From Clostridia bacterium (GTDB lineage: Bacteria > Bacillota > Clostridia > Oscillospirales > CAG-272): 64,000 nt of DNA. The notes under the pieces were generated by a model, which did not search any database, was not told the DNA's origin, and saw only the letters and a program-made list of their open reading frames with translations. The position numbers were made by a program, and so were the translations under genes. The stretch spans positions 404-64,403 of the forward strand of contig JAFWAA010000061.1 of assembly GCA_017507905.1 (NCBI GenBank), read 5' to 3'. Positions 7,016 to 64,000 of the stretch are shown here, piece by piece (positions within the stretch are counted from its first letter, which is position 1; the number at the start of each line of letters is the position of its first letter).

Positions 7016-7036
7016 CGAAAGGCGAAAAAGAAAGGC

Positions 7037-7078
7037 AAAAAAAGATGGACCGTCCCCTCTTGCGTGCGGACGGTCCAT
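7037..7078 (-). terminator. rho-independent terminator of the rubredoxin gene
   Basis: On the minus strand atggaccgtcc and ggacggtccat form an 11-bp stem (7045-7055 / 7068-7078), followed by a U-run (plus-strand A-run 7037-7043). Confidence 0.8.
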
Positions 7079-7121
7079 TCTATGTGTATTCCACGGCGGA
7101 AAGCCGCTTATCAAAGGGGGG

Positions 7122-7307
7122 TCAGATGACCTCCTCATCCTCCTCGCGCTCCTCCTCGACGAAATCGTCCTTGGTGGCACCGCAGAGGGGGCAGACCCAA
7201 TCGGCGGGAAGATCCTCAAAGTCGGTGTTTTCGGCGATTCCGTTATCGGGATCTCCCGTGCGAGGATCGTACTCGTAGCCGCAAAGCTCACAAACGTAGA
7301 CAACCAT
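7122..7307 (-). CDS. rubredoxin
   Basis: 61 aa, [15 protein letters not shown]...[14 protein letters not shown]. Two CxxCG knuckles, plus an acidic C-terminal tail. GGAGA RBS. Confidence 0.92.
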
Positions 7308-7508
7308 AATCGTGCGTCTCCTTTTTCAAAGTGTAATCGAAGCAGTATCATCATATACCATATTGCCTCTATTGTCAATACCCTTTTTCGGATTTTTCCA
7401 CTTTTTTTCCCTTCGCCGCAAAAAGAACGCACGCCAAACGATAATTTTACCGTTCCTCTCATAGAATAGAAAAGCGTCGATCCCGGGACGCGCGAAAGGA
7501 GAATGCAT

Positions 7509-9149
7509 ATGCAAAAGCAGGCAAAACGGCTATTCTGGAACGCGCTCCTTCTTGGCGCGGCCTCTCTCTTTATGCGCACGGTGGGCGTAAGCTTTCAGGT
7601 GCTTCTGGCCGGGCGCATAGGGGCGGAGGCCATGGGACTTTATTCCCTGATGGGAGGCGTGTACGGCTTTGCTCTGACGCTTGCCACCTCGGGGATCGGG
7701 CTCGGGGTGACGCGGCGCGTGACCGAAAACGTGGGAGAGGGACACCCCGAGCGCGTGCGCCCCACCCTTCGGCGCGCAACGCTCTACGCCTCAGGCTTCG
7801 GTCTGCTTGCCGCCCTTCTGCTCCTCGGTACGGCAAAGCCAATAGGGCTCCTCTGGCTCAAGGACGCGCGAACGGTGCGTCCCTTGCGTCTTTTTGCCCT
7901 TACCCTGCCCCTGATCGCCCTCTCCTCGGTATGGAGCGGCTACTTTACGGCGGTCCGCCGCCCCTACAAGAGCGCCGCCGCGCAGGTGAGCGAGCAGATC
8001 TGCAAGGTGGCGGCCACGCTGCTGCTCCTCTCCCTGCTCTCCCCCTCCGACGTGGAGAGCGCCTGCTGTCTCTTGGTTCTTGGCGGCACGGTTGCGGAGC
8101 TGCTCTCCTTCCTTTTGCAGCTGCTCCTCTACCTGCCCGACCGACGGCGGCATTTTGCCCGTGCAGAGACGGAAAGTGACGGACGTGAGGGCAGACGTCT
8201 GCTTGGCATTACCCTGCCCATCGCCTTTGCCGCCTACATCCGCTCCGCCCTTCTGACCCTGGAGCATATCCTCATTCCCGAGGGTCTACGCAACAGCGGA
8301 CACTCACACAAGGACGCGCTCACCGCCTACGGAAGCATTCAGAGCATGGCTCTGCCCGTGATCCTCTATCCCGCCGCGATCATCTCGGCCTTCTCCGGCC
8401 TTTTGATCCCCGAGATGGCCGAAAGCCGCGTCCGAGGCGGGGAGAAGCGCATCTCCTATATGATCGGCAGGGTCTGGTCGCTCTCCCTGCTCTTTTCCAT
8501 CGGGGTGGCAGGGGTGCTGCTCTCCTTCTCGGGCACGGTCGGCGAGGCACTTTATCCTGGCACGCAGACCGCACATTACCTGCGCATTCTCGCGCCCCTG
8601 ATCCCCATTATGTACGTAGACACCGCCACCGACGCCATTCTCAAGGGGCTTGGCGAGCAGGTCTACTGCATGAAGGTGAACATCGCCGACGCCCTGCTCT
8701 CCGTGATCCTGGTCACCCTGCTCATTCCGCGCCTCGGGATCCTCGGCTACGTGGTGACCATCTACGTCTCCGAGCTTCTCAACACCGTGCTCAGCGTGCA
8801 CCGCCTGCTCTGCATCCGCCCCTTGCAGGTAAGGCTTTTCAAGTGGGTCTACAAGCCCCTTCTCTCCATCGTCGGAGCAACCGCCATGGCAAGGCTGCTG
8901 CTCTCGCGGATCGGTCAGCTTCCGACAAGCCCCTTCGCCGCGATCAGCCTTTGCTCGGCTCTTACCCTGGTCCTCTATCTGCTGCTTCTCCTCTTGACGG
9001 GAGGACTGGAGCGCGAGGACGTGCGCTGGCTGACCTCTCTGTTCCGTCCGCGGACGGAGGCGCCCTCAGAGGAAAAGCCTTCTGAACTGTCTGCCCTCAA
9101 GCGCCGCCGCAAGCGTGGGCTGAAGGAGGGTGACGTCCGCCACGAGTGA
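7509..9149 (+). CDS. spoVB: stage V sporulation protein B / MurJ-type (MOP family) flippase
   Basis: ORF 7503-9149. The second ATG (7509) has better spacing from AGGAG. Polytopic membrane protein with a SpoVB-like N-terminus (...LAGRIGAEAMGLYSLMGGVYGFALTLATSGIGLGVTRRVTE). Confidence 0.8.
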   Translation: MQKQAKRLFWNALLLGAASLFMRTVGVSFQVLLAGRIGAEAMGLYSLMGGVYGFALTLATSGIGLGVTRRVTENVGEGHPERVRPTLRRATLYASGFGLLAALLLLGTAKPIGLLWLKDARTVRPLRLFALTLPLIALSSVWSGYFTAVRRPYKSAAAQVSEQICKVAATLLLLSLLSPSDVESACCLLVLGGTVAELLSFLLQLLLYLPDRRRHFARAETESDGREGRRLLGITLPIAFAAYIRSALLTLEHILIPEGLRNSGHSHKDALTAYGSIQSMALPVILYPAAIISAFSGLLIPEMAESRVRGGEKRISYMIGRVWSLSLLFSIGVAGVLLSFSGTVGEALYPGTQTAHYLRILAPLIPIMYVDTATDAILKGLGEQVYCMKVNIADALLSVILVTLLIPRLGILGYVVTIYVSELLNTVLSVHRLLCIRPLQVRLFKWVYKPLLSIVGATAMARLLLSRIGQLPTSPFAAISLCSALTLVLYLLLLLLTGGLEREDVRWLTSLFRPRTEAPSEEKPSELSALKRRRKRGLKEGDVRHE

Positions 9150-9626
9150 ATGCGGCTTCTTCTCGGGATCGTCCTGCAGCATGGGGACGAAATAAACGCA
9201 CTTGCGCGAGAGAAGCGTGGCGATGTTGCGCAGATTGGCCGAGAGGGCGTCGTTTGAGGCAAGCGAAATGATCAGGGGCGCGTCACGCCGCAGATGCGCC
9301 TTTGCCGCCATGCAGACCGCCGTGTCGGTAATGCCGTTGGCGATCTTAGCAAGCGTATTCCCCGTGCAGGGCGCAAGGATCAGCGCCTCGAGCCGAATGG
9401 CAGGACCGAGCGGCTCGGCATCCACCACCGTGTGAATGATCTCCCTTCGGCAAAGCGTCTCCACGGCTCGGCGAAGCTCCTCGGCGCGTCCAAAGCGCGT
9501 GTCGGTGCGCCAGACCGTTTCGCTGAAGATGGGCTGGATCTCATATCCGCTCTGCACCAGACGCTCAAGCTCGCGAAGGGAGCTTGCGTGCGTGCAGAAG
9601 GATCCGCAAAAGGCATAGCCAAGCAT
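9066..9626 (-). CDS. dpaB: dipicolinate synthase subunit B (flavoprotein)
   Basis: MLGYAFCGSFCTH...LILAPCTGNTLAKIANGITDT matches the SpoVFB/DpaB flavoprotein family. ATG at 9626 follows AAAGGGGGG and lies 1 nt after the dpaA stop. Confidence 0.88.
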   Translation of the reverse strand: MLGYAFCGSFCTHASSLRELERLVQSGYEIQPIFSETVWRTDTRFGRAEELRRAVETLCRREIIHTVVDAEPLGPAIRLEALILAPCTGNTLAKIANGITDTAVCMAAKAHLRRDAPLIISLASNDALSANLRNIATLLSRKCVYFVPMLQDDPEKKPHSLVADVTLLQPTLAAALEGRQFRRLFL

Positions 9627-51980: not shown

Positions 51981-52793
51981 TTATTCTGCGATCGAAAATA
52001 CCTTCTTGGCGTTCTCGGCAAGCATCCGTCGCATATCCTCCTCGGAAAAGCCGAGCGACAAAAGGGACGCAAGCTCCTCCCTGGGATGCCACATGGGGTA
52101 GTCCGTGCCGAACAGGACGCGATCCGTGCCAAAGCGCAGGATCAGCTCCCGCACGCGCTCGGGCGGCAAAAAGCCGAAGCAGGAGGAGGAATCCACGTAA
52201 AAATTCGGTGCCCCAGCGAGCATCCGCTCCGCGTCCTCCCAGACCGACCAGCCGCCAAGGTGCGCCCCCACGACGGTAAGCCCCTCAAAGATCTCGAGAA
52301 TGGGAAGCATCCGATTGGGATTGGAAAAATCGTAGCGGCGGTCGCCCGTGTGCATCAGAATGGGCAGTCCCTCCTCCTCGCAAAGCTCGTAGATGCGCAG
52401 GAAGCGGAAATCGTCGATCTTGAAGCGCTGAATGTCGGGGTGCAGCTTGACCCCGTGCAGACCGAGGCGCACGATCCTGCGGACGTCGCCCGTAAGGTCC
52501 TCGCTCTCGGGATGAAGCGTGCCAAGACCGGTCAGGCAACCCTTTCCCTGTGCAACCTCCTCGGCAATAAACTCGTTGATGCCCGTGACCTGCTTTGGTG
52601 TGGTGGCGACCGACTGGATCACGAAATGATCCACGCCGTGCGCAAGCCCCTCCTCCATCAGATCCTGCACCGTGCCGCGGCAGACCGAGTGCAGACCGTA
52701 AAAGGTATCCGTGCCCTCTACCGCGCGCGCCGCGATCTTTTCGGGGTAAACGTGGCAGTGCGCGTCAACGACCGCATAGCCTTGGCCGACCAT
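51981..52793 (-). CDS. amidohydrolase_2 (TIM-barrel metal-dependent hydrolase/decarboxylase) family protein
   Basis: 270 aa. VVDAHCHVYP (HxH), GVKLHP, ILMHTG, GTDYPMW. The ATG overlaps the upstream stop (TGATG). Confidence 0.8.
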   Translation of the reverse strand: MVGQGYAVVDAHCHVYPEKIAARAVEGTDTFYGLHSVCRGTVQDLMEEGLAHGVDHFVIQSVATTPKQVTGINEFIAEEVAQGKGCLTGLGTLHPESEDLTGDVRRIVRLGLHGVKLHPDIQRFKIDDFRFLRIYELCEEEGLPILMHTGDRRYDFSNPNRMLPILEIFEGLTVVGAHLGGWSVWEDAERMLAGAPNFYVDSSSCFGFLPPERVRELILRFGTDRVLFGTDYPMWHPREELASLLSLGFSEEDMRRMLAENAKKVFSIAE

Positions 52794-55327
52794 CAGGCAG
52801 TCACCACGCGGCTCGCCTTGTGCAGACCGAGCTTTTCGATGGCCTCCTCACGCATCTTGTACTTGAGGATCTTGCCTGCGGCATTCATCGGGAAGCCCTC
52901 GACGAAGTCCACGTACTTCGGCACCTTGTGGCGCGCCATGTGGTCGCCGACATACTTCTTCATCTCCTCGGCCGTCATGCTCTCGCCATCCTTGAGGACG
53001 ATGCAGGCCATGATCTCCTCGCCGTACTGCTCGTCGGGCACGCCGATGACCTGCACGTCGCGGACCTTGGGATGCGTGTAGATAAACTCCTCGATCTCCT
53101 TGGGATAGATGTTCTCGCCGCCGCGAATGATCATGTCTTTGAGGCGTCCCGTAATGCGGAAGTTTCCGTCCTTGGTGCGACAGGCAAGGTCACCCGTATG
53201 GAGCCAGCCCTCAGCATCAATGGCGGCCGCGGTGGCCTCGGGCATCTTGTAGTAGCCCTTCATCAGGTTGTAGCCGCGTGCCACGAATTCACCCGTGACC
53301 TCGTCGGGGCAATCCTCTCCCGTTTCGGGATTGACGATCTTGCACTCGATCTCGGGCAGGGGACGTCCGACCGTGCCCACGCGGACCTCGATGGGATCGT
53401 CCGTGGAGCTCATGGTGCAGCCCGGGGAGGCCTCGGTCTGGCCGTAAACGATGGTGATCTCCTTCATGTTCATCTTCTCGACCACGTCCTTCATCGTGGA
53501 GATGGGACAGGGGCTTCCCGCCATGATGCCCGTGCGCATATGCGCAAAGCTGGTCTTCTCAAAATCGGGATGCTCCAGGAGCGCGATAAACATGGTGGGC
53601 ACGCCGTGGAAGGCGGTGATGTGCTCGTTGTGAATGCAGGCAAGCGCGGGCTTGGGGGAGAAATACGGCAGGGGCAGAATGGTGCCTCCGTGCGTCATGG
53701 TCGCCGTCATGGCCAGCACCATGCCAAAGCAATGGAACATGGGCACCTGGATCATCATGCGGTCCGCGGTGGAGAGATCCATGCGGTCGCCGATGCATTT
53801 TCCGTTATTGACGATATTATAGTGCGTGAGCATAACGCCCTTGGGGAATCCCGTCGTGCCCGAGGTGTACTGCATATTGCAAACGTCGTCCTTGTTGACG
53901 GCGGCGGCCATGCGGTAGACCTCACGCAGAGGAACGCGTGCGGCTCTCTCGAGTGCCTCGTTCCAATCCATGCAGCCCCTCTGACGGAAGCCGACGGTGA
54001 TGACGTTGCGCAAAAAGGGCAAACGCTTGCTGTGCAGAGGAGAGCCCGTCTTGGTCTCAGCAAGCTCGGGGCAAAGCTCGGCAATGATCTTGCCGTAATG
54101 CGTATCCTTCGAGCCCTCGGTCAAGATCAAGGTATGCGTATCCGACTGCTTGAGCAGGTACTCGGCCTCGTGGATCTTGTAGGCCGTGTTGACCGTGACC
54201 AGCACCGCGCCAAGCTTTACCGTTGCCCAGAAGGCAATATACCACTGCGGCACGTTGGAGGCCCAGACCGCCACGTGCGATCCCGCCTTGACGCCAAGAG
54301 CGATCAGCGCGCGGGCAAATTCGTCCACGTCGTCGCGGAATTCGCTATACGTGCGCGTATAATCCAGCGTCGTATACTTGAAGGCGTACTGGTCGGGAAA
54401 TTCCTCGACCATGCGGTCAAGCACCTGCGAGAAGGTCGCGTCGATGAGCGCCTCCTTCTTCCAGACGTACTTGCCCGTGTGGGCCTTGTTATAGTAAAGC
54501 GCAGGCTCCTTGCGGGAGGTGTCGCTATACTGCTTCATGTAGTTGACGAACTGGGAGAAGATGATCTCCATGTCGTCCAGCTCCTCGCACCAGCGCGGAT
54601 CCCAGACCAGGGAGAGGAAGCCGTCGTAATTGACCGAGCGGAGCGCCAGCATCATGGACTTCAGGGGCAGCTCCCCTTCTCCGACCAGGCAATACTCGAG
54701 GCCGTCCTCGGTCATGCGCGCATCGCTGACGTGCACGTGACGGACGTAAGCGCCCAGATGCTTGATGACCTGCTCGGCGCTCTCGCCGCCTCCAAAGTAA
54801 GCGGCAGACAAATTCCAGAGTGCGCCCAGAAAGTCGCAGGCAAAGCGCTCGAGAAGCGTGCGCAGCGTCTCGGCACGGCAGAACAGACCAAAGGTCTCAA
54901 TCAGCAGAGTGATCCCCTTCTCCTCGGCCACCGGCAAAAGCGTTTCCAAGAGCCCTGCGATGCGCTCGATCGCCGCGGCGTTTTTCTCCGCACTGCCGGC
55001 GTCGCTCGCCTTGAGGCGGATAAAGGGAATGTGCAGATTGGAGGCGACCTCCATGCAGGAGAGGATCTCCTGCACGTCACGCTCTCCGTCCTGTGCCTTG
55101 CCAAGATCGCAAACGGTGTCCATGCAGACCACCGTCAGCTTCTTCTCGTACAGGCGCCGCAGAGTTGCCGCGCTGGCATAGCCGTGGAAGGCGCCGTCGC
55201 GGTCGGTGAACATCGCATTATAAATATTGTGCAGCTCGATGCCCTCAAATTTCAGATCCTCGGCAACGTCGCAAAACTCCTCAAAGCTGCGTCCGTGCCA
55301 GCCCTTGGTGGAAAAGGAAAGCTTCAT
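52793..55327 (-). CDS. fusion protein: xylose-isomerase-like TIM barrel plus AMP-forming acyl-CoA synthetase/ligase
   Basis: 844 aa. The first ~280 aa match the AP-endonuclease-2 / sugar-phosphate-isomerase fold (KFEGIELH, LLIETF, VRHVHVSD, YDGFLSLVWDP). The rest is an adenylate-forming enzyme (MQYTSGTTGFPKGV, WLHTGDLA, GRLKDMIIRGGENIYP, GKILK). GGAGG RBS. The ATG overlaps the upstream stop (ATGA). Confidence 0.85.
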   Translation of the reverse strand: MKLSFSTKGWHGRSFEEFCDVAEDLKFEGIELHNIYNAMFTDRDGAFHGYASAATLRRLYEKKLTVVCMDTVCDLGKAQDGERDVQEILSCMEVASNLHIPFIRLKASDAGSAEKNAAAIERIAGLLETLLPVAEEKGITLLIETFGLFCRAETLRTLLERFACDFLGALWNLSAAYFGGGESAEQVIKHLGAYVRHVHVSDARMTEDGLEYCLVGEGELPLKSMMLALRSVNYDGFLSLVWDPRWCEELDDMEIIFSQFVNYMKQYSDTSRKEPALYYNKAHTGKYVWKKEALIDATFSQVLDRMVEEFPDQYAFKYTTLDYTRTYSEFRDDVDEFARALIALGVKAGSHVAVWASNVPQWYIAFWATVKLGAVLVTVNTAYKIHEAEYLLKQSDTHTLILTEGSKDTHYGKIIAELCPELAETKTGSPLHSKRLPFLRNVITVGFRQRGCMDWNEALERAARVPLREVYRMAAAVNKDDVCNMQYTSGTTGFPKGVMLTHYNIVNNGKCIGDRMDLSTADRMMIQVPMFHCFGMVLAMTATMTHGGTILPLPYFSPKPALACIHNEHITAFHGVPTMFIALLEHPDFEKTSFAHMRTGIMAGSPCPISTMKDVVEKMNMKEITIVYGQTEASPGCTMSSTDDPIEVRVGTVGRPLPEIECKIVNPETGEDCPDEVTGEFVARGYNLMKGYYKMPEATAAAIDAEGWLHTGDLACRTKDGNFRITGRLKDMIIRGGENIYPKEIEEFIYTHPKVRDVQVIGVPDEQYGEEIMACIVLKDGESMTAEEMKKYVGDHMARHKVPKYVDFVEGFPMNAAGKILKYKMREEAIEKLGLHKASRVVTA

Positions 55328-56706
55328 GCCTGGACCTCCTCGTAAACGATCTTATTGATCGCGTTGATGTATGCACGGATGCTTGCACCGATGATGTCGG
55401 TGGAGATCCCGTTGCCCGAATAGAGCTTGCCGTCGGCGCGGAGCTTGACCAGAGCCGATCCCATGGCCTCCTTGCCCTCGGTGACCGCCTGGATCTGGAA
55501 ATCGTCCAGCTCGTAGCGGTGTCCGACGATCTGCTCGATGGCGCGGAAGGCGGCGTCGATCGGACCGTCACCGATGGAAATCCCCTGCATGGTCTCTCCG
55601 TTCTTCTCCATCGTGATCTGTGCGGTGGAGGAGATGACGTTGCCGTTGTTGACGACGTAAGCCTTGATCTGATAGGTCGCGGGGACCTGCAGAGCCACGC
55701 TCGCGATCACGGCCTCCAGCTCCTTGGAGCCGACCTGGCGGTTGCGGCTGACGCGGCAGAACTCCTCGTAGACCTTTGCGCGGTCCTCCTCGGAGAGATC
55801 GTAGCCAAGCTGTACGGCGGCCGCATCCACGGCCTCGCGCCCGTCGTTGGCGTCCAGACGGATCTCGGCCTGCTCGGCGGCAGGAGAGAGCACGAGCTTC
55901 TCGCTCTTTGCGCCGTCAATGATCCAACGGATCTGCTTGACGTTGCGGTGCAGCTCGGTCGCGCGGACGGCCGTGCAGAGCTCGTAGGTGTTTCCGCAAT
56001 TCTTGATCATATCCACGAAGGCCTCAAGCGAGACGGCCTCGCCCAAAACCGCCGTCTTGACGCCGTCAACGCCTGCACGGACGGCCAGAGCAGCCGATGC
56101 CGCGGCCATGCCGTTCTTATCGTTGCAGCGCACGTAAACGGGAACGGAGATGCGCTTGGCGATCTCCCCTGCAAAGGCGGCAAAATCGTCGGGCATCATC
56201 TCGGCGGCACTGTCGCAAAGGGTGACCGAGGTCGCGCCCGCGCCGATAGCGGCCTGCAAAGCGGCCTCAAGCACCTCGCGCTCGGCGCGCGTGGCGTCCA
56301 CGGCGCAAAGCTCCACGTCGGGGCAGGCCTGCTTTGCCTCGGCCACGCAGGCAGCGATCCACTCGATCATCTTGGGTGCCTTCTTGTGGCAGGCATACTC
56401 CATTCCCACGGGAGAGACGGGCAGCTCGATGCGGATACGGGGATGGGCGGCACCCGAAAGCGCCGCGGCCGCCAGGGCCACGCTTCCCGCTGCCATACCT
56501 GCGCCAACCGAAAGCACGCTTCCCTTAACGAAGGAGGAAACCGTGCGCACGAGCAGGGAGTCGGTCTTGGCATTGGTGATCTCGGGGAGCTCGATGGCGT
56601 CCACGTTCAGCTTCTCCAGCTGACGGGCGATCTCGATGCGCTCCTTGAAGCTGAGGGCGCCCTCAGCGCTCAAAAGCGTTGTGTCTGCAATTCTGATCTG
56701 TTTCAT
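55324..56706 (-). CDS. 2-isopropylmalate synthase-like protein with degenerate catalytic motifs and an intact LeuA regulatory domain
   Basis: ATG at 56706 follows AAAGGAGAGG. HMGL-like barrel in which DTTLRDGEQ is DTTLLSAEG and H-x-H-D-D-L-G is VRCNDKNG. C-terminal LeuA-dimer domain (GDGPIDAAFRAIEQI...GISTDIIGASIRAYINAINK). Confidence 0.75.
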   Translation of the reverse strand: MKQIRIADTTLLSAEGALSFKERIEIARQLEKLNVDAIELPEITNAKTDSLLVRTVSSFVKGSVLSVGAGMAAGSVALAAAALSGAAHPRIRIELPVSPVGMEYACHKKAPKMIEWIAACVAEAKQACPDVELCAVDATRAEREVLEAALQAAIGAGATSVTLCDSAAEMMPDDFAAFAGEIAKRISVPVYVRCNDKNGMAAASAALAVRAGVDGVKTAVLGEAVSLEAFVDMIKNCGNTYELCTAVRATELHRNVKQIRWIIDGAKSEKLVLSPAAEQAEIRLDANDGREAVDAAAVQLGYDLSEEDRAKVYEEFCRVSRNRQVGSKELEAVIASVALQVPATYQIKAYVVNNGNVISSTAQITMEKNGETMQGISIGDGPIDAAFRAIEQIVGHRYELDDFQIQAVTEGKEAMGSALVKLRADGKLYSGNGISTDIIGASIRAYINAINKIVYEEVQA

Positions 56707-56751
56707 GTTACCTCTCCTTTTTCTGTGTTCTCGTCGGAGACGGGGAATGCC

Positions 56752-57020
56752 GAAAATAAACAAGCCCCCGGGATCGGCCAATACCGATCCCGGGGACGAA
56801 AAAACACTTTCGCGGTACCACCCCGGTTGCTGCCATAGCAGCCACCTTTTTCCGAATTCCAACAAATTCTCTGCCATGATAACGGGGCAAGCCGTAGACG
56901 CTTACTGGACTTCAGCACCTCTGCTCCGGAATGAGACTTCCCTTCTCGCTCACGCCGACTCGCACCTACCGTCGGCTCTCTGAGGTGAGGAATGAAAAGC
57001 GGAATAATTCCTTCAACGCA
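56752..57020 (-). promoter_or_regulatory. T-box riboswitch leader, specifier CUC (Leu)
   Basis: Minus strand. Stem I (57020-56922) has a K-turn UGC-GUUGA...GGA-GCA, AG bulge AGAGAG, distal loop GGUAGGUGCGA, and specifier CUC-A at 56935-56932. F-box-like CCGUUA is present. T-box core GGGGUGGUACCGCG lies at 56824-56811. The terminator is a 12-bp stem (56766-56777 / 56784-56795) followed by a U-run. Confidence 0.85.
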
Positions 57021-57043
57021 TTTACATTTGAATGATGGAAATG

Positions 57044-57072
57044 ATTATAGCACGCTTTTCCCCTTTTGTCAA
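57044..57072 (-). promoter_or_regulatory. sigma-A type promoter of the Leu T-box operon
   Basis: On the minus strand: TTGACA (57072-57067), 17-bp spacer, TATAAT (57049-57044). Confidence 0.7.
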
Positions 57073-57134: not shown

Positions 57135-57674
57135 TCAGGCCTCGTAATCCGCGCCCAGCTGCATTGCCTTGAGGTTGACCTCAAGCATATCCGCGCGCTT
57201 GGCGGAAATGACCTTCCTCAGTGCGGCCTCGACCTTTTCCACGTCGAACTGTCCAAGCTCCTTGAGGATCTTGCCCAGAAGGATCATGTTGGCAAGCGTG
57301 GGCGTGCCGTTGTCGCTCGCCATCTGCGTGGCGGGGATCTTGACCAGCTTGACGTCTTTTCTCTCGATGTCTCTTGCGATCAGCGTGGAGTCGGCAAAGA
57401 TGATGCCGCCCGGCACCACCGCAGACTCAAAGCGATCGAGGGACGGAAGGTTCATGGCCACCAGAACGTCGGGATTGGAGACGATGGGAGAGCCCACGGG
57501 CGTGTCGCTGACGATCACGCTGCAGCTCGCCGTTCCGCCGCGCATCTCGGGACCGTAGGAAGGAAGCCAGCTGACCTGCTTATCCTCGGTCAATCCCTTA
57601 TACGCCATCAGCTTTCCGACGAACAGAATGCCCTGTCCGCCAAAGCCGGAGAACAAAAACTTGGTTGTACTCAT
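57135..57674 (-). CDS. 2-oxoacid:ferredoxin oxidoreductase, gamma subunit
   Basis: 179 aa. [22 protein letters not shown]... AGGAGG RBS. The start overlaps the beta-subunit stop. Confidence 0.88.
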
Positions 57675-58426
57675 TTCTCTGCCTCCTGACTTGCCGATCT
57701 GTCCTTATAGACACCCAAGGGGTAATACGGCAGCATTTTTTCGTCGATCCACTCCAGCGCCTGCTTGGGCGTCATGCCCCAGTTGGTGGGACAGGAGGAA
57801 ACGACCTCGACCAGAGAAAAGCCCTTGCCGTCGATCTGATTCTGGAAGGCCTTCTTGATGGCCTTCTTGGCGTTCTTGACGTTCTTGACGTTATTGACGG
57901 TCACACGCTCAAGATACTCGGGGCCCTCAAGCTCGGAGAGCAGTTCGCAAACGCGAATGGGGTATCCGCAATGCTTGACGTCGCGTCCGTAGGGCGAGGT
58001 CTGCGTGACCTGGCCGGGGAGCGAGGTGGGAGCCATCTGTCCGCCCGTCATGCCGTAGATCGCATTGTTGACGAAGATGACCGTGATGTTCTCGTTGCGC
58101 GCGGCGGCGTGCACCGTCTCGGCCATACCGATGGACGCGAGGTCACCGTCACCCTGATAGGTGAAGACCACGTTCTCGGGATTGGCGCGCTTAACGCCCG
58201 TAGCGACTGCGGGAGCGCGTCCGTGCGCCGCCTCGATCATGTCGCAGTTGAAGTAATCGTAAGCCATGACCGAGCAGCCGACCGGTGCGATACCGACCGT
58301 CTTGCCCTCAATGCCAAGCTCATCCATGACCTCGGCCACCAGGCGGTGAATGATGCCGTGGGTGCAGCCGGGGCAATAATGCAGAGGAAGATCTGCCAAT
58401 GCGTTAGGCTTCTGAAAAACGATCAT
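57671..58426 (-). CDS. 2-oxoacid:ferredoxin oxidoreductase, beta (TPP-binding) subunit
   Basis: 251 aa. [10 protein letters not shown] and GDGDLASIG (TPP motif). GGAGG RBS. Confidence 0.9.
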
Positions 58427-59496
58427 TCGTTCTTACCTCCATTCTTTGCAGCCTTAAGGATCGCGTCAAGCACCTGCTCGGGGGACGGGATCATTCCGCC
58501 CACGCGATTGCACAGGGTGACGGGAACGCGGCACTCGGTGGCCAAACGAACGTCCTCGATCATCTGTCCCATGGACAGCTCTACCGAAATGACCTCCTTG
58601 ACCTGCTCTGCCGCGCGGCGGAAGGGTGCCTTCGGGAAGGGCCAAAGCGTGATGGGACGGATCATACCGACCTTAATGCCCATCGCTCTTGCCTCGTCGA
58701 TGGCGTTCTTCGATACGCGAGCGGCAATACCGAAGGCGGCAATGCAGATCTCTGCATCCTCCATGCGGTATTCCTCGTACATCGTTTCCTTCTCCTCGAT
58801 CACGCGATAGCGATCGTAGCGCTCAAAGTTGGTCTCTTCGAGCTTTTCGGGAGAGAGGAACAGAGAGTTAATCACGTTATGCGGACGCTTCATGCCCGTT
58901 CCCGTCACGGCCCAAGGCTTCTCGGGCATGGGGGTCACGGGGAGATCGTCCAGGGCCACGGGCTCCATCATCTGTCCCATGGTTCCGTCGGCCAGGATCA
59001 TGGCCGTCATGCGATAGGTATCCGCCAGAGCAAAGCCCTTTACGGTCAGCTCTGCCATCTCCTGCACCGAGGAGGGGGCAAGAACGATCATGCGGAAGTC
59101 GCCGTGTCCGCCGCCCTTGGTGGCCTGGAAATAATCCGACTGGCTGGGCTGAATGCCGCCAAGTCCCGGGCCGCCGCGCTGGACGTTGACCACAAGCGAG
59201 GGCAGGTCCGCACCGGCAAGGTAGGAAAGTCCCTCACTCTTGAGCGAAATTCCGGGGCTGGAGGAGGAGGTCATCACGCGGCGTCCTGCCGCTGCAACGC
59301 CGTAGACCATGTTAATGGCCGCGATCTCACTCTCGGCCTGCAGAAACACGCCGCCGATCTTGGGCATTCTCTTGGCCATGTAGGCCGCGATCTCGGTCTG
59401 GGGAGTAATGGGATAGCCGAAGTAGTGGCGGCAGCCTGCACGAATGGCCGCTTCCGCGATGGCTTCGTTTCCCTTCATCAAAACCTTATCTGCCAT
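58423..59496 (-). CDS. 2-oxoacid:ferredoxin oxidoreductase, alpha subunit (VorB/KorA-like)
   Basis: [36 protein letters not shown]...[17 protein letters not shown] at 59496 follows AAGGTGA (a GTG at 59505 is also possible). Confidence 0.88.
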
Positions 59497-59505
59497 ATTC
59501 TTCAC

Positions 59506-59712
59506 TCACCTTTCCACTTCAATGATGCAGTCGGGGCACATGGTCGCGCAGAAGGCGCAGCCGATGCAGGCCTCCTCGTTGGCGGCCTCCACGGGGTGGT
59601 GTCCCTTTTGGTTGATCTTGTCGGGGGACAGACGAAGGACCTGCTTGGGGCAGGCGTCAACACAAAGCCCACAGCCCTTGCATTTGTCGGTCTTAAAGGT
59701 TAATTTTGCCAT
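59506..59712 (-). CDS. 2-oxoacid:ferredoxin oxidoreductase, delta subunit (2x[4Fe-4S] ferredoxin)
   Basis: 68 aa. CKGCGLCVDACP and CIGCAFCATMCP. Confidence 0.9.
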   Translation of the reverse strand: MAKLTFKTDKCKGCGLCVDACPKQVLRLSPDKINQKGHHPVEAANEEACIGCAFCATMCPDCIIEVER

Positions 59713-60410: not shown

Positions 60411-62702
60411 TCAAAGCATATTGCGGCGGATCTTGCCGCTGGTGGTCTTGGGAAGCTCGTCGCGGAAGACGACCAGACGCGGATACTTGTAGGGAGCGGT
60501 ATGCTCCTTGACGTAGCGCTGGATCTCCTTCTTGAGCTCCTCGGTGGGCTCGGTGCCGGGCGTCAGAACGATGCTCGCCTTGACGATCTGTCCGCGCACC
60601 TCGTCGGGAGCGGCCGAAACGCCGCACTCGAGAACGTAAGGAAGCTCCATGATGACGCTCTCGATCTCAAAGGGACCGATGCGGTAGCCCGAGGACTTGA
60701 TGACGTCGTCCACGCGGCCGACGTACCAGTAGAAGCCGTCCTCATCGCGCCACGCGGTGTCTCCCGTATGGTAGTAGCCGTCGTGCCAAGCCTCGGCGGT
60801 CTTCTCAGGATCGTTGTAGTAGCCCACGGAAAGTCCGCAGGGATAGCCGTTTTTGAGGCTGACGACGATCTCGCCCGTCTCACCCACGGCCACGGGATTG
60901 CCCTCGGCGTCCACCAGCTCCACGTCGTAGATCGGTGCGGGCTTGCCCATCGAGCCGATCTTATGCGGCGCACCCGTCATGTTTCCGATGATCATGGTGC
61001 TCTCGGATTGACCAAAGCCCTCGAGGATCTGCAATCCCGTTGCCTTCTCGAACTGACGGTAGACCTCGGGGTTGAGTGCCTCGCCCGCCGTGGTCATGTG
61101 CTGGACCGAGGAGAAATCGTACTTGGAAATATCCTGCTTGATCATCATGCGCAGCATCGTGGGAGGTGCGCAGAAGGTGGTGATGCCGTACTTGGCAAAC
61201 ATGGGAAGGATATCCGAGGCGTCGAAGCGGTCGAAATCGTAAACGAAGGTGGCCGCCTCGCAGAGCCACTGGCCGTAGAACTTGCCCCACATGGATTTTG
61301 CCCAGCCCGTATCCGAGATGGTAAAGTGCAGGCCGTCGGGATCCACGTTGTGCCAGTATTTTGCCGTATGGAAATGTCCAAGCGGATACTTGTAGTTATG
61401 TGCGGCAATCTTGGGATAGCCCGAGGTGCCCGACGTAAAGAACATCAGCATCAGATCGTCGCCGCCCGGTGCATTCTCCGGACGCTTGTAGTGCGTGCTG
61501 TAAAGCGTGTATTCCTCGTCAAAGCTTCTCCAGCCCTCGCGCTCGCCGCCAACCAGCATCTTGTGCTTGAGGGTGGGAGAGGAGGCGGCGGCAAGCTCCA
61601 CCTGCTCTGCCACGCCGTCGTCGGCGGTGCAGATGATGGCAGAGATGCCTGCGCTCTTGAAGCGATACTCAAAATCGTGCGCCTGGAGCTGGTTGGTGGC
61701 GGGAATGCCGATGGCACCCAGCTTGTTCAGTCCGAGCATGGCGGCCCAGAACTGGTAATGCCGCTTGAGCACCAGCATCACGCGGTCGCCCTTCTTGATG
61801 CCGAGCGACTTGAAGTAGTTGGCACACTGGGCAGACATCTTCTTCATGTCCTTGAAGGTGAAGCGACGCTCGGTCTTGTCCTTGGAGACGTGCAGCATGG
61901 CCAGACGGTCAGGCTCGCGCTCGGCGAGGGCGTCGATCAGATCAAAGGCGAAGTTGAAGTTGTCGATATTCTGGAATTGGATCGAGGTAGGCGTGCCGTT
62001 CTCGTCGACCTCGGTCTTGATAAAGCGGTGATAGATGCGCTCGCGATCGTCCCTCTTGGGTGCGCGCGCAGGCTCGCGAATGGCCTTGGTGGGGGTCAAT
62101 TCGGGAATGGGCTCGCCCGTGGGATTGAGAACGATGGCGTAGAATACGCAATCCTTTCCGCCAACGGCGATCATGCCGTGCGGCGTGTCACTGTCAAAGT
62201 AGATGCTGTCACCGGGGCCCAGCACCTCGCGATGCTCGCCCACCTGCACCATCAGCTGTCCCTCCACGACGAGGTCGCATTCCTGGCCTGCGTGCGTGGT
62301 CAGCTCAATGTCCCTTTGCTGTGCCTCGGGATCATAGGTGCTGCGCACGTACAGCGGCTCGGCAATACGGTTCTGGAAGGCGTAGGCCAGGTTGTAGTAG
62401 GTCATGCCGTGCGCCTGTGCGATCTTCTGTCCCGCACCCGCACGGGTGACGGTAAAGGATTTCAGCGTCGGGCTCTGACCCTCGATGATATCGGTAACGT
62501 TGACGTTGAGCGTCATGGCGCAGCGATAGATGAACGCAAAGTTCAGATCGCTCTCGCCCGACTCACAGCGAATGTATTCGGCAACGTCCACACCCGTCTT
62601 CTGCGCCATCTCCTCGGGGGAAAGCCCCTCGATCTCGCGCAGCTCGCGGATACGCGCCGCCATTTCCCGGATCTTAAAATCCAGTCCCTTCATTTGTTCC
62701 AT
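60411..62702 (-). CDS. fusion protein: XRE-type HTH plus cupin plus medium-chain-type AMP-forming acyl-CoA synthetase
   Basis: ATG at 62702 follows AAAGGGGA. HTH (IRELREIEGLSPEEMAQKTGVDVAEYIRCESGES), cupin (GQECDLVVEGQL...GDSIYFDSDTPHG), then the ACS (FFTSGTSGYPK, YHTGDTAWRDEDGFYWYVGRVDDVIKSSGYRIGPFEIES, SGKIRR). Confidence 0.85.
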   Translation of the reverse strand: MEQMKGLDFKIREMAARIRELREIEGLSPEEMAQKTGVDVAEYIRCESGESDLNFAFIYRCAMTLNVNVTDIIEGQSPTLKSFTVTRAGAGQKIAQAHGMTYYNLAYAFQNRIAEPLYVRSTYDPEAQQRDIELTTHAGQECDLVVEGQLMVQVGEHREVLGPGDSIYFDSDTPHGMIAVGGKDCVFYAIVLNPTGEPIPELTPTKAIREPARAPKRDDRERIYHRFIKTEVDENGTPTSIQFQNIDNFNFAFDLIDALAEREPDRLAMLHVSKDKTERRFTFKDMKKMSAQCANYFKSLGIKKGDRVMLVLKRHYQFWAAMLGLNKLGAIGIPATNQLQAHDFEYRFKSAGISAIICTADDGVAEQVELAAASSPTLKHKMLVGGEREGWRSFDEEYTLYSTHYKRPENAPGGDDLMLMFFTSGTSGYPKIAAHNYKYPLGHFHTAKYWHNVDPDGLHFTISDTGWAKSMWGKFYGQWLCEAATFVYDFDRFDASDILPMFAKYGITTFCAPPTMLRMMIKQDISKYDFSSVQHMTTAGEALNPEVYRQFEKATGLQILEGFGQSESTMIIGNMTGAPHKIGSMGKPAPIYDVELVDAEGNPVAVGETGEIVVSLKNGYPCGLSVGYYNDPEKTAEAWHDGYYHTGDTAWRDEDGFYWYVGRVDDVIKSSGYRIGPFEIESVIMELPYVLECGVSAAPDEVRGQIVKASIVLTPGTEPTEELKKEIQRYVKEHTAPYKYPRLVVFRDELPKTTSGKIRRNML
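61137..61223. repeat. 87-nt block identical to 63816-63902 (inside paralogous acyl-CoA synthetase genes)
   Basis: cttgatcatcatgcgcagcatcgtgggaggtgcgcagaaggtggtgatgccgtacttggcaaacatgggaaggatatccgaggcgtc occurs in both copies. The flanking sequence is clearly diverged. Confidence 0.9.
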
Positions 62703-62747: not shown

Positions 62748-63010
62748 AAATACAAAACGCACTCGCCCCAAAGTTCGTTGCTTTGAGACGAGTGCGAAAT
62801 CACCCGCGGTACCACTCAAATTACGGCTCTCGCCGTCACTCCGGATCTGACAATCCTTATGCCTTGACGCAGCAATCACGGGAAGGTTCTACGGCCGCGA
62901 GGCTTTCTTCCTTCCGACTCGGGAGCTACAAGCAAACACCCTCTCCTATGGCTCGCACCGTCCGCCATTTCTCTGTAAGGATCCGATCAATGCCCTTCTC
63001 CGTCACCGTC
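62748..63010 (-). promoter_or_regulatory. T-box riboswitch leader, specifier GUA (Val)
   Basis: Minus strand. Stem I (63010-62916) has a K-turn GAC-GGUGA...GA-GUC, AG bulge AGAGA, distal loop GGACGGUGCGA, and specifier GUA-G at 62929-62926. T-box core GAGUGGUACCGCGGG lies at 62817-62803. The terminator stem is cgcactcg.../...cgagtgcg (62758-62796), followed by UUUUGUAUUU. Confidence 0.82.
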
Positions 63011-63028
63011 TTTCCTATGAATGAAACT

Positions 63029-63057
63029 ATTTTAGCACAACTTTGTCTTTTTGTCAA
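63029..63057 (-). promoter_or_regulatory. sigma-A type promoter of the Val T-box operon
   Basis: On the minus strand: TTGACA (63057-63052), 17-bp spacer, TAAAAT (63034-63029). Confidence 0.7.
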
Positions 63058-63089: not shown

Positions 63090-64000
63090 TCAAAGCTTGT
63101 TTCTCTGGATCTTTCCGCTGATGGTCTTGGGAAGCTCATCGCGGAAGACGACGATACGCGGATACTTGTAAGGCGCGGTATGTTCCTTGACGTACTGCTG
63201 GATCTCCTTCTTGAGTGCCTCGGTGGGCTCGGTTCCCTTGACCAGCACGACGCTGGCCTTGACGACCTGTCCGCGCACCTCGTCGGGGGCTGCGGAGACG
63301 CCGCACTCAAGGACGTAGGGCAGCTCCATGATGACGCTCTCGATCTCAAAGGGCCCAATGCGGTAGCCCGAGGACTTGATGACGTCATCCACGCGGCCAA
63401 CGTACCAGAAGAAGCCGTCCTCGTCACGCCACGCGGTGTCGCCCGTGTGGTAGAGGCCATCATGCCATACCTCGTCGGTCTTTTCCTGATTTTTGTAGTA
63501 TCCCGCAAACAGCCCACAGGGGATCTTCTTGTCGGTGTGAATGACGATCTCGCCGACCTCACCCACGGGAACGGGGTTGCCGTCGGGATCGACCAGATCC
63601 ACGTCGTAGAAGGGCACGGGACGGCCCATCGAGCCGAGCTTGTGTGCGCCTCCCATAAGGTTGGCGATGGTAAGGGTGGTCTCGGTCTGTCCGAAGCCCT
63701 CCATGGTCTGCAGGCCCGTGGCCTCCTCAAACTTGCGGTAGACCTCGGGGTTGAGTGCCTCGCCTGCCGTGGTCATGTGACGAATGGAGGAAAGATCGTA
63801 CTTGCTGATGTCCTCCTTGATCATCATGCGCAGCATCGTGGGAGGTGCGCAGAAGGTGGTGATGCCGTACTTGGCAAACATGGGAAGGATATCCGAGGCG
63901 TCAAAGCGATCAAAGTCATAGGTAAAGACCGCACCCTCGCAGAGCCACTGGCCGTAGAGCTTGCCCCAGAGGGCCTTGCCCCAGCCCGTATCCGAGATGG
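63090..64000 (-). CDS. medium-chain-type AMP-forming acyl-CoA synthetase, paralogue (N-terminus outside window)
   Basis: The frame is open to the window edge (...ISDTGWGKALWGKLYGQWLCEGAVFTYDFDRFDASDILPMFAKYG...SGKIQRNKL). It is closely related in protein and DNA sequence to the C-terminal part of 60411-62702. Confidence 0.88.
   Translation of the reverse strand, partial: ISDTGWGKALWGKLYGQWLCEGAVFTYDFDRFDASDILPMFAKYGITTFCAPPTMLRMMIKEDISKYDLSSIRHMTTAGEALNPEVYRKFEEATGLQTMEGFGQTETTLTIANLMGGAHKLGSMGRPVPFYDVDLVDPDGNPVPVGEVGEIVIHTDKKIPCGLFAGYYKNQEKTDEVWHDGLYHTGDTAWRDEDGFFWYVGRVDDVIKSSGYRIGPFEIESVIMELPYVLECGVSAAPDEVRGQVVKASVVLVKGTEPTEALKKEIQQYVKEHTAPYKYPRIVVFRDELPKTISGKIQRNKL
63816..63902. repeat. 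87-nt block identical to 61137-61223
   Basis: See the 61137-61223 repeat entry. Confidence 0.9.

Follow-up and report, generated by a model that had tools for sequence, protein, structure and literature searches.

A putatively valine-specific T-box leader of an acyl-CoA synthetase and 2-oxoacid:ferredoxin oxidoreductase operon, within a three-unit Ile/Val/Leu array of Clostridia

We analyzed a 64,000-nucleotide stretch of contig JAFWAA010000061.1 (assembly GCA_017507905.1, a Clostridia bacterium of the CAG-272 lineage), hereafter the window, in which a T-box leader on the minus strand precedes six genes. They code for an AMP-forming acyl-CoA synthetase (ACS2), a P-loop NTPase, and the four subunits of a 2-oxoacid:ferredoxin oxidoreductase (OFOR). 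This leader, the Val leader, is probably a valine-specific attenuator governing an operon for making valine from isobutyrate, and its unit is the middle one of an array of three. The anatomy of the RNA, the identity of its specifier codon, the gene content of the operon, and the conservation of each are demonstrated below. Feature coordinates are collected in Table 1.

Results

The Val leader and the T-box family

In a permissive Rfam scan, the minus-strand leader at 62781-63015 matched RF00230, the T-box family model, over model positions 1-219 with 72.9 bits. The E value of this match was 5.5e-16 in a search of a 471-nt region and 7.5e-14 in a search of the 64-kb window on both strands with all families. 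The window-wide E value puts the Val leader far beyond chance. The default Rfam scan of the whole window at gathering thresholds returned only the T-box at 56789-57025 and not the Val leader. Two orthologous Val leaders, L001 and L053, scored 101.6 and 95.6 bits, both above the RF00230 gathering score of 93. The Val leader scores below the Rfam cutoff because of a degenerate S-turn and non-canonical pairs in the middle of its Stem I. A first-pass annotation made from the letters of the window had claimed a T-box leader here and had proposed a search with this model. The search returned a significant match, yet one under the gathering threshold, and the claim is upheld by that match, by the orthologs above the threshold, and by the covariation described below. 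On sequence grounds, we therefore class the Val leader as a bona fide though low-scoring member of the T-box family.

Table 1. Features of the Val unit and its neighbors in the window (position 1 is the first letter of the window)
Feature	Position	Strand	Details
Promoter of the Val unit, sigma-70-type	63029-63057	-	TTGACA-17-TAAAAT, TG-extended -10; 11/12 matches
T-box leader (Val leader)	62781-63015	-	full-length RF00230 match
Stem I: K-turn base, specifier loop, AGAGA bulge, distal loop	62916-63010	-	alignment and pairing counts
Specifier codon GUA (Val)	62927-62929	-	codon position in the RF00230 alignment; purine G next at 62926
Stem II	62881-62915	-	6 pairs, 99.4% paired, compensatory changes in 6/6
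Stem IIA/B pseudoknot	62860-62880	-	IIA 62880-62868; IIB 62874-62872 with 62862-62860
Extra linker hairpin, Stem IIA/B to Stem III	62843-62856	-	4 pairs, 99.7% paired
Stem III	62823-62836	-	5 pairs, 98.1% paired, compensatory changes in 5/5
Antiterminator with 7-nt UGGUACC bulge	62783-62819	-	helices 100% and 98.5% paired
Competing intrinsic terminator	62748-62796	-	stem 62796-62758 (16 bp, 9 G-C pairs), then U tract
ACS2: XRE-HTH and cupin domains with an AMP-forming acyl-CoA synthetase, predicted for short branched-chain acids	60411-62702	-	Pfam domains
P-loop NTPase, 221 aa	59739-60404	-	motif GHYGSGKT; weak ParA/CbiA matches
OFOR delta subunit, 2x[4Fe-4S] ferredoxin	59506-59712	-	
OFOR alpha subunit, VorB type	58423-59505	-	NF005507, 543 bits (cutoff 399)
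OFOR beta subunit, binds thiamine diphosphate	57671-58426	-	
OFOR gamma subunit	57135-57674	-	
Leu (CUC) unit, regulatory region	56764-57072	-	promoter 57072-57044; T-box 57025-56789; terminator 56797-56764
Leu-controlled genes (three, below)	51981-56709	-	
LeuA-like pseudoenzyme, first gene behind the Leu T-box	55324-56709	-	
Xylose-isomerase-like TIM barrel (AP_endonuc_2) fused to FadD-like acyl-CoA synthetase ACS3	52793-55327	-	844 aa
Amidohydro_2 protein	51981-52793	-	
ACS1, 3' part, paralogous HTH-cupin-ACS	63090-64000	-	cut by the window end

Conservation and covariation of the Val leader

To compare the leader across bacteria we used 80 loci encoding relatives of ACS2 that are 78-83% identical. 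They come from metagenome-assembled genomes of Acutalibacteraceae, Oscillospiraceae, and Ruminococcaceae from ruminant and human guts. A T-box core is found about 95 nt upstream of the gene in 77 loci. Orthologous leaders from 78 species-level genomes were aligned with MAFFT, the T-box architecture was imposed on the alignment, and pairs were counted. Across these leaders 89.6% of the cells are paired, and 39 of the 54 pairs show compensatory changes; covariation is seen in all helices, among them the IIA/B pseudoknot and the terminator. The covariation score is 0.340; column shuffles give 0.176, with 0 of 500 scoring as high, and slid controls give 0.09-0.14.

The base of Stem I reads GAC-GGUGAC-GGAG / CUCC-CGA-GUC, a K-turn, and the distal hairpin carries GGCGGACGGUGCGAGCC. 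Pairing is 99.1% in the base helix, 100% in the K-turn helix, and 96.2% in the apical helix, with compensatory changes in each. AGAGA and the distal-loop bases G81, G85, U87, G88, and A91 are invariant in the 78 leaders. The middle of Stem I is only 19-56% paired, a region that MAFFT aligned poorly and that we treated as uninformative. The S-turn site in the window reads AAGGGCA / GCUU versus a consensus of aAGUA / GAA, and some orthologs keep the AGUAC 5' side. In the pseudoknot, IIA is 100% and IIB 99.6% paired; two of the three IIB pairs have compensatory changes, with double changes from UA to GC and from GC to AU. The T-box core, GAGUGGUACCGCGGG, lies at 62817-62803 on the minus strand, and an 18-nt core (AAUUUGAGUGGUACCGCG) is identical in all 78 leaders. 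The K-turn, AGAGA bulge, distal loop, and T-box core had all been named in the first-pass annotation, and each was recovered where it had been placed. The extra hairpin before Stem III, at 62843-62856, is treated as an insertion by the Rfam model; all four of its pairs have compensatory changes.

Promoter and terminator

The promoter and the competing terminator had likewise been proposed beforehand, and both are present. The -35 TTGACA is found in 71 of 77 regions upstream of Val leaders, and a -35 hexamer is found in all 63 upstream regions of Ile leaders. A conserved operator for the helix-turn-helix (HTH) domain of the synthetases was sought upstream of the promoters, and only the promoter hexamers were recovered. 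The terminator overlaps the 3' strand of the antiterminator, making the two folds mutually exclusive. It is 93.5% paired across the leaders with compensatory changes in five pairs, and UUUUGUAUUU comes directly after its hairpin in the Val leader. In the minimum-free-energy fold of the leader the terminator appears together with Stem III and the extra hairpin. With a z-score of only -1.32 for the whole-leader fold, stability alone does not flag the Val leader.

Specifier codon and tRNA

The codon position of RF00230 falls on GUA followed by G, after which comes the CUCC strand of the K-turn helix. In alignment-based tallies the specifier is GUA in 77 of the 78 leaders and GUC, also a Val codon, in the remaining one. 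The G and U are invariant and the base following the specifier is either G or A. This placement agrees with the positional rule of TBDB, by which the specifier is at positions 2-4 from the bulge end (PMC7778990). Read this way, the Val leader is predicted to be a T-box specific for valine.

Two other registers were considered. The Cys register UGU (-1) is not conserved and reads GGU in L007, L010, and L021 and CGU in L068. The UAG register was ruled out as a specifier on conservation. The UGGU bulge of the antiterminator is invariant in the 78 leaders. It would pair with an ACCA end, and a discriminator A73 is therefore implied for the cognate tRNA. The choice of a valine specifier, the disfavoring of the Cys register, and the UGGU bulge, all made in the first-pass annotation, are borne out by these comparisons. 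The only tRNA genes at the related loci are for tRNA-Lys.

Genes of the Val operon

ACS2 is 763 aa long as encoded in the window; the database start is 9 nt (three codons) downstream and gives 760 aa. Its best NCBIfam model is MbcS (NF047394), with 432 bits. The closest solved relative is PDB 3ETC, the medium-chain acyl-CoA synthetase MacsMa of Methanosarcina acetivorans (E=4e-188, 52% identity over 515 aa), an enzyme with the branched acid 2-methylbutyrate as its preferred substrate (PMC10455477). It is the catalytic domain of ACS2 that shares this identity with MacsMa, the 3ETC alignment starting at ACS2 residue 246. Unlike MacsMa, ACS2 and its paralog ACS1 carry an extra N-terminal part of about 200 aa with XRE-type HTH and cupin domains.

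The alpha subunit of the OFOR passes the cutoff of its curated model, named 3-methyl-2-oxobutanoate dehydrogenase subunit VorB, and the genes for the delta, beta, and gamma subunits are adjacent, which places the enzyme among the VorB-type 2-oxoisovalerate:ferredoxin oxidoreductases (VOR). No NCBIfam match was found for the 221-aa P-loop protein. Its gene is kept between those for ACS2 and OFOR delta in the related loci that reach that far, and the protein may serve in OFOR maturation or in Fe-S delivery. We found no internal terminator within the six-gene operon, and the genes are tightly packed; ACS2 and the OFOR genes are predicted to be co-transcribed. The HTH-cupin-ACS and OFOR genes that had been placed downstream of the leader beforehand are there, the OFOR with four subunits. 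Source records naming these proteins call them only 'AMP-binding protein'.

The Ile/Val/Leu array

At the related loci a second T-box lies about 2.6 kb upstream of the Val leader and a third about 7 kb downstream. The upstream leader has the specifier AUC (Ile) in 64 of 64 cases, the Val leader GUA or GUC in 78 of 78, and the downstream leader the Leu codons CUC in 21 of 23 and CUG in 2 of 23. The gene order, with T-boxes in brackets, is [Ile]-ACS1-[Val]-ACS2-Ploop-delta-alpha-beta-gamma-[Leu]-LeuA-like-TIM::ACS3-amidohydrolase. This array is conserved in about 80 genomes of Acutalibacteraceae and Oscillospiraceae; in one sublineage the Leu unit is upstream and divergent, yet adjacent. The window ends within ACS1. 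On a contig of the same species (L081, ACS2 99% identical), ACS1 is preceded by an Ile (AUC) T-box at 7021-7263 with 97.9 bits, and the unit of Ile T-box and ACS1 spans 7021-9605.

A separate promoter precedes every T-box in the array. Strong terminators on the minus strand are limited to those of the two T-boxes and one past the last gene; transcription of a preceding unit therefore also stops at the T-box terminator that follows it. No terminator was found between the ACS1 stop codon and the Val promoter. The Leu T-box comes directly after the gene for OFOR gamma, and the Val operon has no 3' end other than the Leu T-box terminator. The Leu T-box scores 120.4 bits, more than the Val leader, and has a perfect promoter (TTGACA-17-TATAAT).

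ACS1 and ACS2 form two orthologous groups with 75% and 82% identity within them and 66% between them. The HTH-cupin parts of the two are about 50% identical, the catalytic parts 80-98%. The diverged HTH-cupin modules suggest paralog-specific ligand sensing or autoregulation. They are encoded at 62100-62702 on the minus strand of the window for ACS2 and at 7335-7935 of L081 for ACS1. Next to the A4 and A5 motifs, which line the acyl pocket in this enzyme family, the catalytic parts of ACS1 and ACS2 show a few fixed differences, GW[G/A]K and TE[T/S]T[L/M]xI[A/G]N. The Ile-linked ACS1 has GWGK and TIA, like the 2-methylbutyrate-preferring MacsMa; the Val-linked ACS2 has GWAK and IIG.

Judging from the relatedness of the two copies, the probable origin of the unit of leader plus ACS is a tandem duplication in which the specifier changed between AUC and GUA. 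Signs of concerted evolution between Ile and Val leaders are weak, with an identity of 0.768 within the same genome vs 0.722 across genomes. Ile and Val leaders share 72-77% identity in their 3' halves, and in a few genomes (L003, L004) the two leaders have stretches that are nearly the same.

The first gene of the Leu unit encodes a LeuA-like protein in which, by comparison with PDB 3EWB, RDGEQ is replaced by LLSAEG and HxH by RCN, while the C-terminal LeuA_dimer domain is retained. The same losses of catalytic motifs were seen in those LeuA-like orthologs where the motif search matched, about half of 21. In true LeuA the LeuA_dimer domain binds leucine, and the LeuA-like protein may be a leucine-sensing pseudoenzyme. 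The last gene encodes a protein of the Amidohydro_2 family, which includes reversible decarboxylases.

Discussion

A model for valine supply from isobutyrate

We infer the response to tRNA, the substrate specificity of the synthetases, and the direction of the VOR, and propose the following model. The Val unit would be transcribed from its own strong promoter, and the default fold of the leader would be the 16-bp terminator, stopping RNA polymerase before the first gene. Uncharged tRNA-Val, on accumulating, would be held at three sites, with its UAC anticodon paired to the GUA specifier of Stem I, its elbow stacked on the distal platform of Stem I, and its free ACCA end paired to the UGGU bulge. 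These contacts would stabilize the antiterminator, allowing RNA polymerase to read into the operon. ACS2 would then activate exogenous isobutyrate to isobutyryl-CoA, the VOR would reductively carboxylate isobutyryl-CoA to 2-oxoisovalerate, and an aminotransferase encoded elsewhere would convert 2-oxoisovalerate to valine. An AMP-forming synthetase drives its reaction towards acyl-CoA. Because of this push, and because a switch induced by starvation only suits synthesis, we take the VOR to be anabolic. Each branched-chain volatile fatty acid would be salvaged into its amino acid on demand, with one unit for each.

Rumen bacteria are known to form Val from isobutyrate and Ile from 2-methylbutyrate, and to carboxylate and aminate isovalerate to Leu (PMC7356843 and the work of Allison and co-workers cited in it). 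The Val operon fits the chemistry of the step from isobutyrate to valine. It also has the four-subunit delta-alpha-beta-gamma OFOR with a VorB-type alpha subunit of the VOR family, and comes from gut and rumen Clostridia. Compared with the classic rumen work, the enzyme genes here come with tRNA sensors, each for one amino acid, and the catalytic direction is deduced from gene content and regulation.

Several observations weigh against this model. The Val leader, at 72.9 bits, is under the RF00230 gathering threshold of 93, and the canonical AGUA/GAA S-turn sequence is not present in the specifier loop of the window. A search for tRNA genes in the 64-kb window found none, and so no tRNA-Val(UAC) with A73 there. 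ACS2, with 432 bits, is well short of the MbcS equivalog cutoff of 850 and is a relative of MbcS rather than an equivalog. ACS3 belongs to a different ACS subfamily, and a PDB search with it yielded no substrate clue. We found no aminotransferase gene in the cluster. VOR genes are encoded in the Val unit only, and starvation for Ile only or Leu only would not obviously induce the VOR because the Val terminator would stop read-through from ACS1.

Other readings of the operon

In an alternative that we consider unlikely, the Val leader would act as the same T-box, and the operon would make isobutyryl-CoA primers for branched-chain fatty acids when valine is scarce, with the VOR and the synthetase as two alternative sources of isobutyryl-CoA, much as MbcS works in Staphylococcus aureus. 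MbcS supports branched-chain fatty-acid synthesis. It is the best NCBIfam match of ACS2, and an oxidative VOR and the ACS would indeed both yield isobutyryl-CoA. The match, though, misses the MbcS cutoff (432 vs 850), and an oxidative VOR, if induced while valine is short, would divert 2-oxoisovalerate from valine formation. Three amino-acid-specific switches also suit amino-acid supply better than primer supply.

VOR-type enzymes are best characterized as oxidizing enzymes of archaea and Clostridia that ferment peptides, and the NCBIfam name for the alpha subunit model is a 'dehydrogenase'. Both would fit a catabolic operon in which the VOR oxidizes valine-derived 2-oxoisovalerate for energy and the T-box is incidental or follows another logic. 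This we consider very improbable, as catabolism would call for the reverse of a switch that valine starvation turns on. An AMP-forming enzyme does not fit it either; such a synthetase spends ATP making acyl-CoA and cannot conserve energy from it. In addition, an activating enzyme goes strictly with each of the three switches, for Ile, Val, and Leu.

Least probable of all is that the Val leader is decaying or non-functional, or senses a tRNA other than tRNA-Val, such as tRNA-Cys through the UGU that overlaps GUA in the window sequence; the score under the gathering threshold and the non-canonical S-turn would agree with this, but the 18-nt core is invariant, pairing and compensatory changes (89.6% of cells, 39 of 54 pairs) extend over 78 species-level genomes, orthologs score above the gathering threshold, and valine is read throughout in the GUA/GUC register, unlike the -1 register with its variants GGU and CGU.

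Relation to known T-boxes

Like the T-boxes of Firmicutes valS, ileS, leuS, and ilv-leu genes, the Val leader has a Stem I with K-turn, specifier loop, AG bulge, and distal loop, followed by Stem II, the IIA/B pseudoknot, Stem III, a UGGN bulge, and a competing terminator. It differs from the RF00230 norm in its degenerate S-turn, its extra conserved hairpin before Stem III, and its sub-gathering score. As is usual for a T-box, it would control the supply of the amino acid it senses. Unlike usual T-boxes, the genes below it encode an ACS and an OFOR and not an aminoacyl-tRNA synthetase, ilv/leu enzymes, or a transporter. Tandem T-boxes have several copies of the same specificity within one leader, for example in B. 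subtilis thrZ. Similar to these, the array has several T-box terminators in series in one direction of transcription. Unlike them, it has three specificities (Ile, Val, and Leu), separate promoters, and genes between the T-boxes, and each of its terminators doubles as the 3' end of the preceding unit.

In a literature search with incomplete coverage of the key surveys, no paper connected T-boxes with any of isobutyrate, VOR-type oxidoreductases, and acyl-CoA synthetases. Such genes are unmentioned in the text and the readable part of the supplements of the in silico T-box survey of Wels et al., and the TBDB paper (PMC7778990) makes no mention of them. The regulon link is apparently undescribed; the RNA itself is an ordinary T-box, with a riboswitch mechanism that holds no surprise. 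The first-pass annotation had regarded the operon as an oddity for a T-box. That no paper links the two agrees with it, but the operon can be read as an alternative route of valine biosynthesis, and T-box control is therefore less anomalous than was implied.

The array and the Allison pathway

That rumen bacteria can build branched-chain amino acids out of volatile fatty acids was recognized in the 1960s. As far as our literature search reached, that classic work is biochemical, and we found no account of the genes or the regulation of the carboxylation route. The chances seem to us evenly balanced that the conserved three-T-box array (Ile, Val, Leu) provides the genes and the regulation of this 'Allison' pathway in gut and rumen Clostridia. 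If so, each uncharged branched-chain tRNA would induce a dedicated short branched-chain acyl-CoA synthetase, and by the synthetases together with the VOR 2-methylbutyrate would be turned back into Ile, isobutyrate into Val, and isovalerate into Leu. The HTH-cupin modules and the catalytically dead LeuA with its leucine-binding domain would be a second layer of control. The T-box specifiers would then be built-in substrate labels for enzymes that otherwise could not be annotated.

The specifier codons AUC, GUA, and CUC are sequence-level evidence that the VorB-type oxidoreductase and the three synthetases serve amino-acid supply, and they also suggest which acid each synthetase uses. The array is relevant to the use of branched-chain volatile fatty acids in the rumen and to the balance of branched-chain amino acids in the gut.

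Genomic context

No ilv or leu genes were among roughly 20 of the largest open reading frames in positions 1-50,000 of the window, which were identified. These are ordinary chromosomal genes of a spore-forming organism of the class of Clostridium. They include those for DpaA, ComEC, DNA polymerase III alpha, WhiA, MurB, RF-1, Sua5, a topoisomerase, and EF-G.

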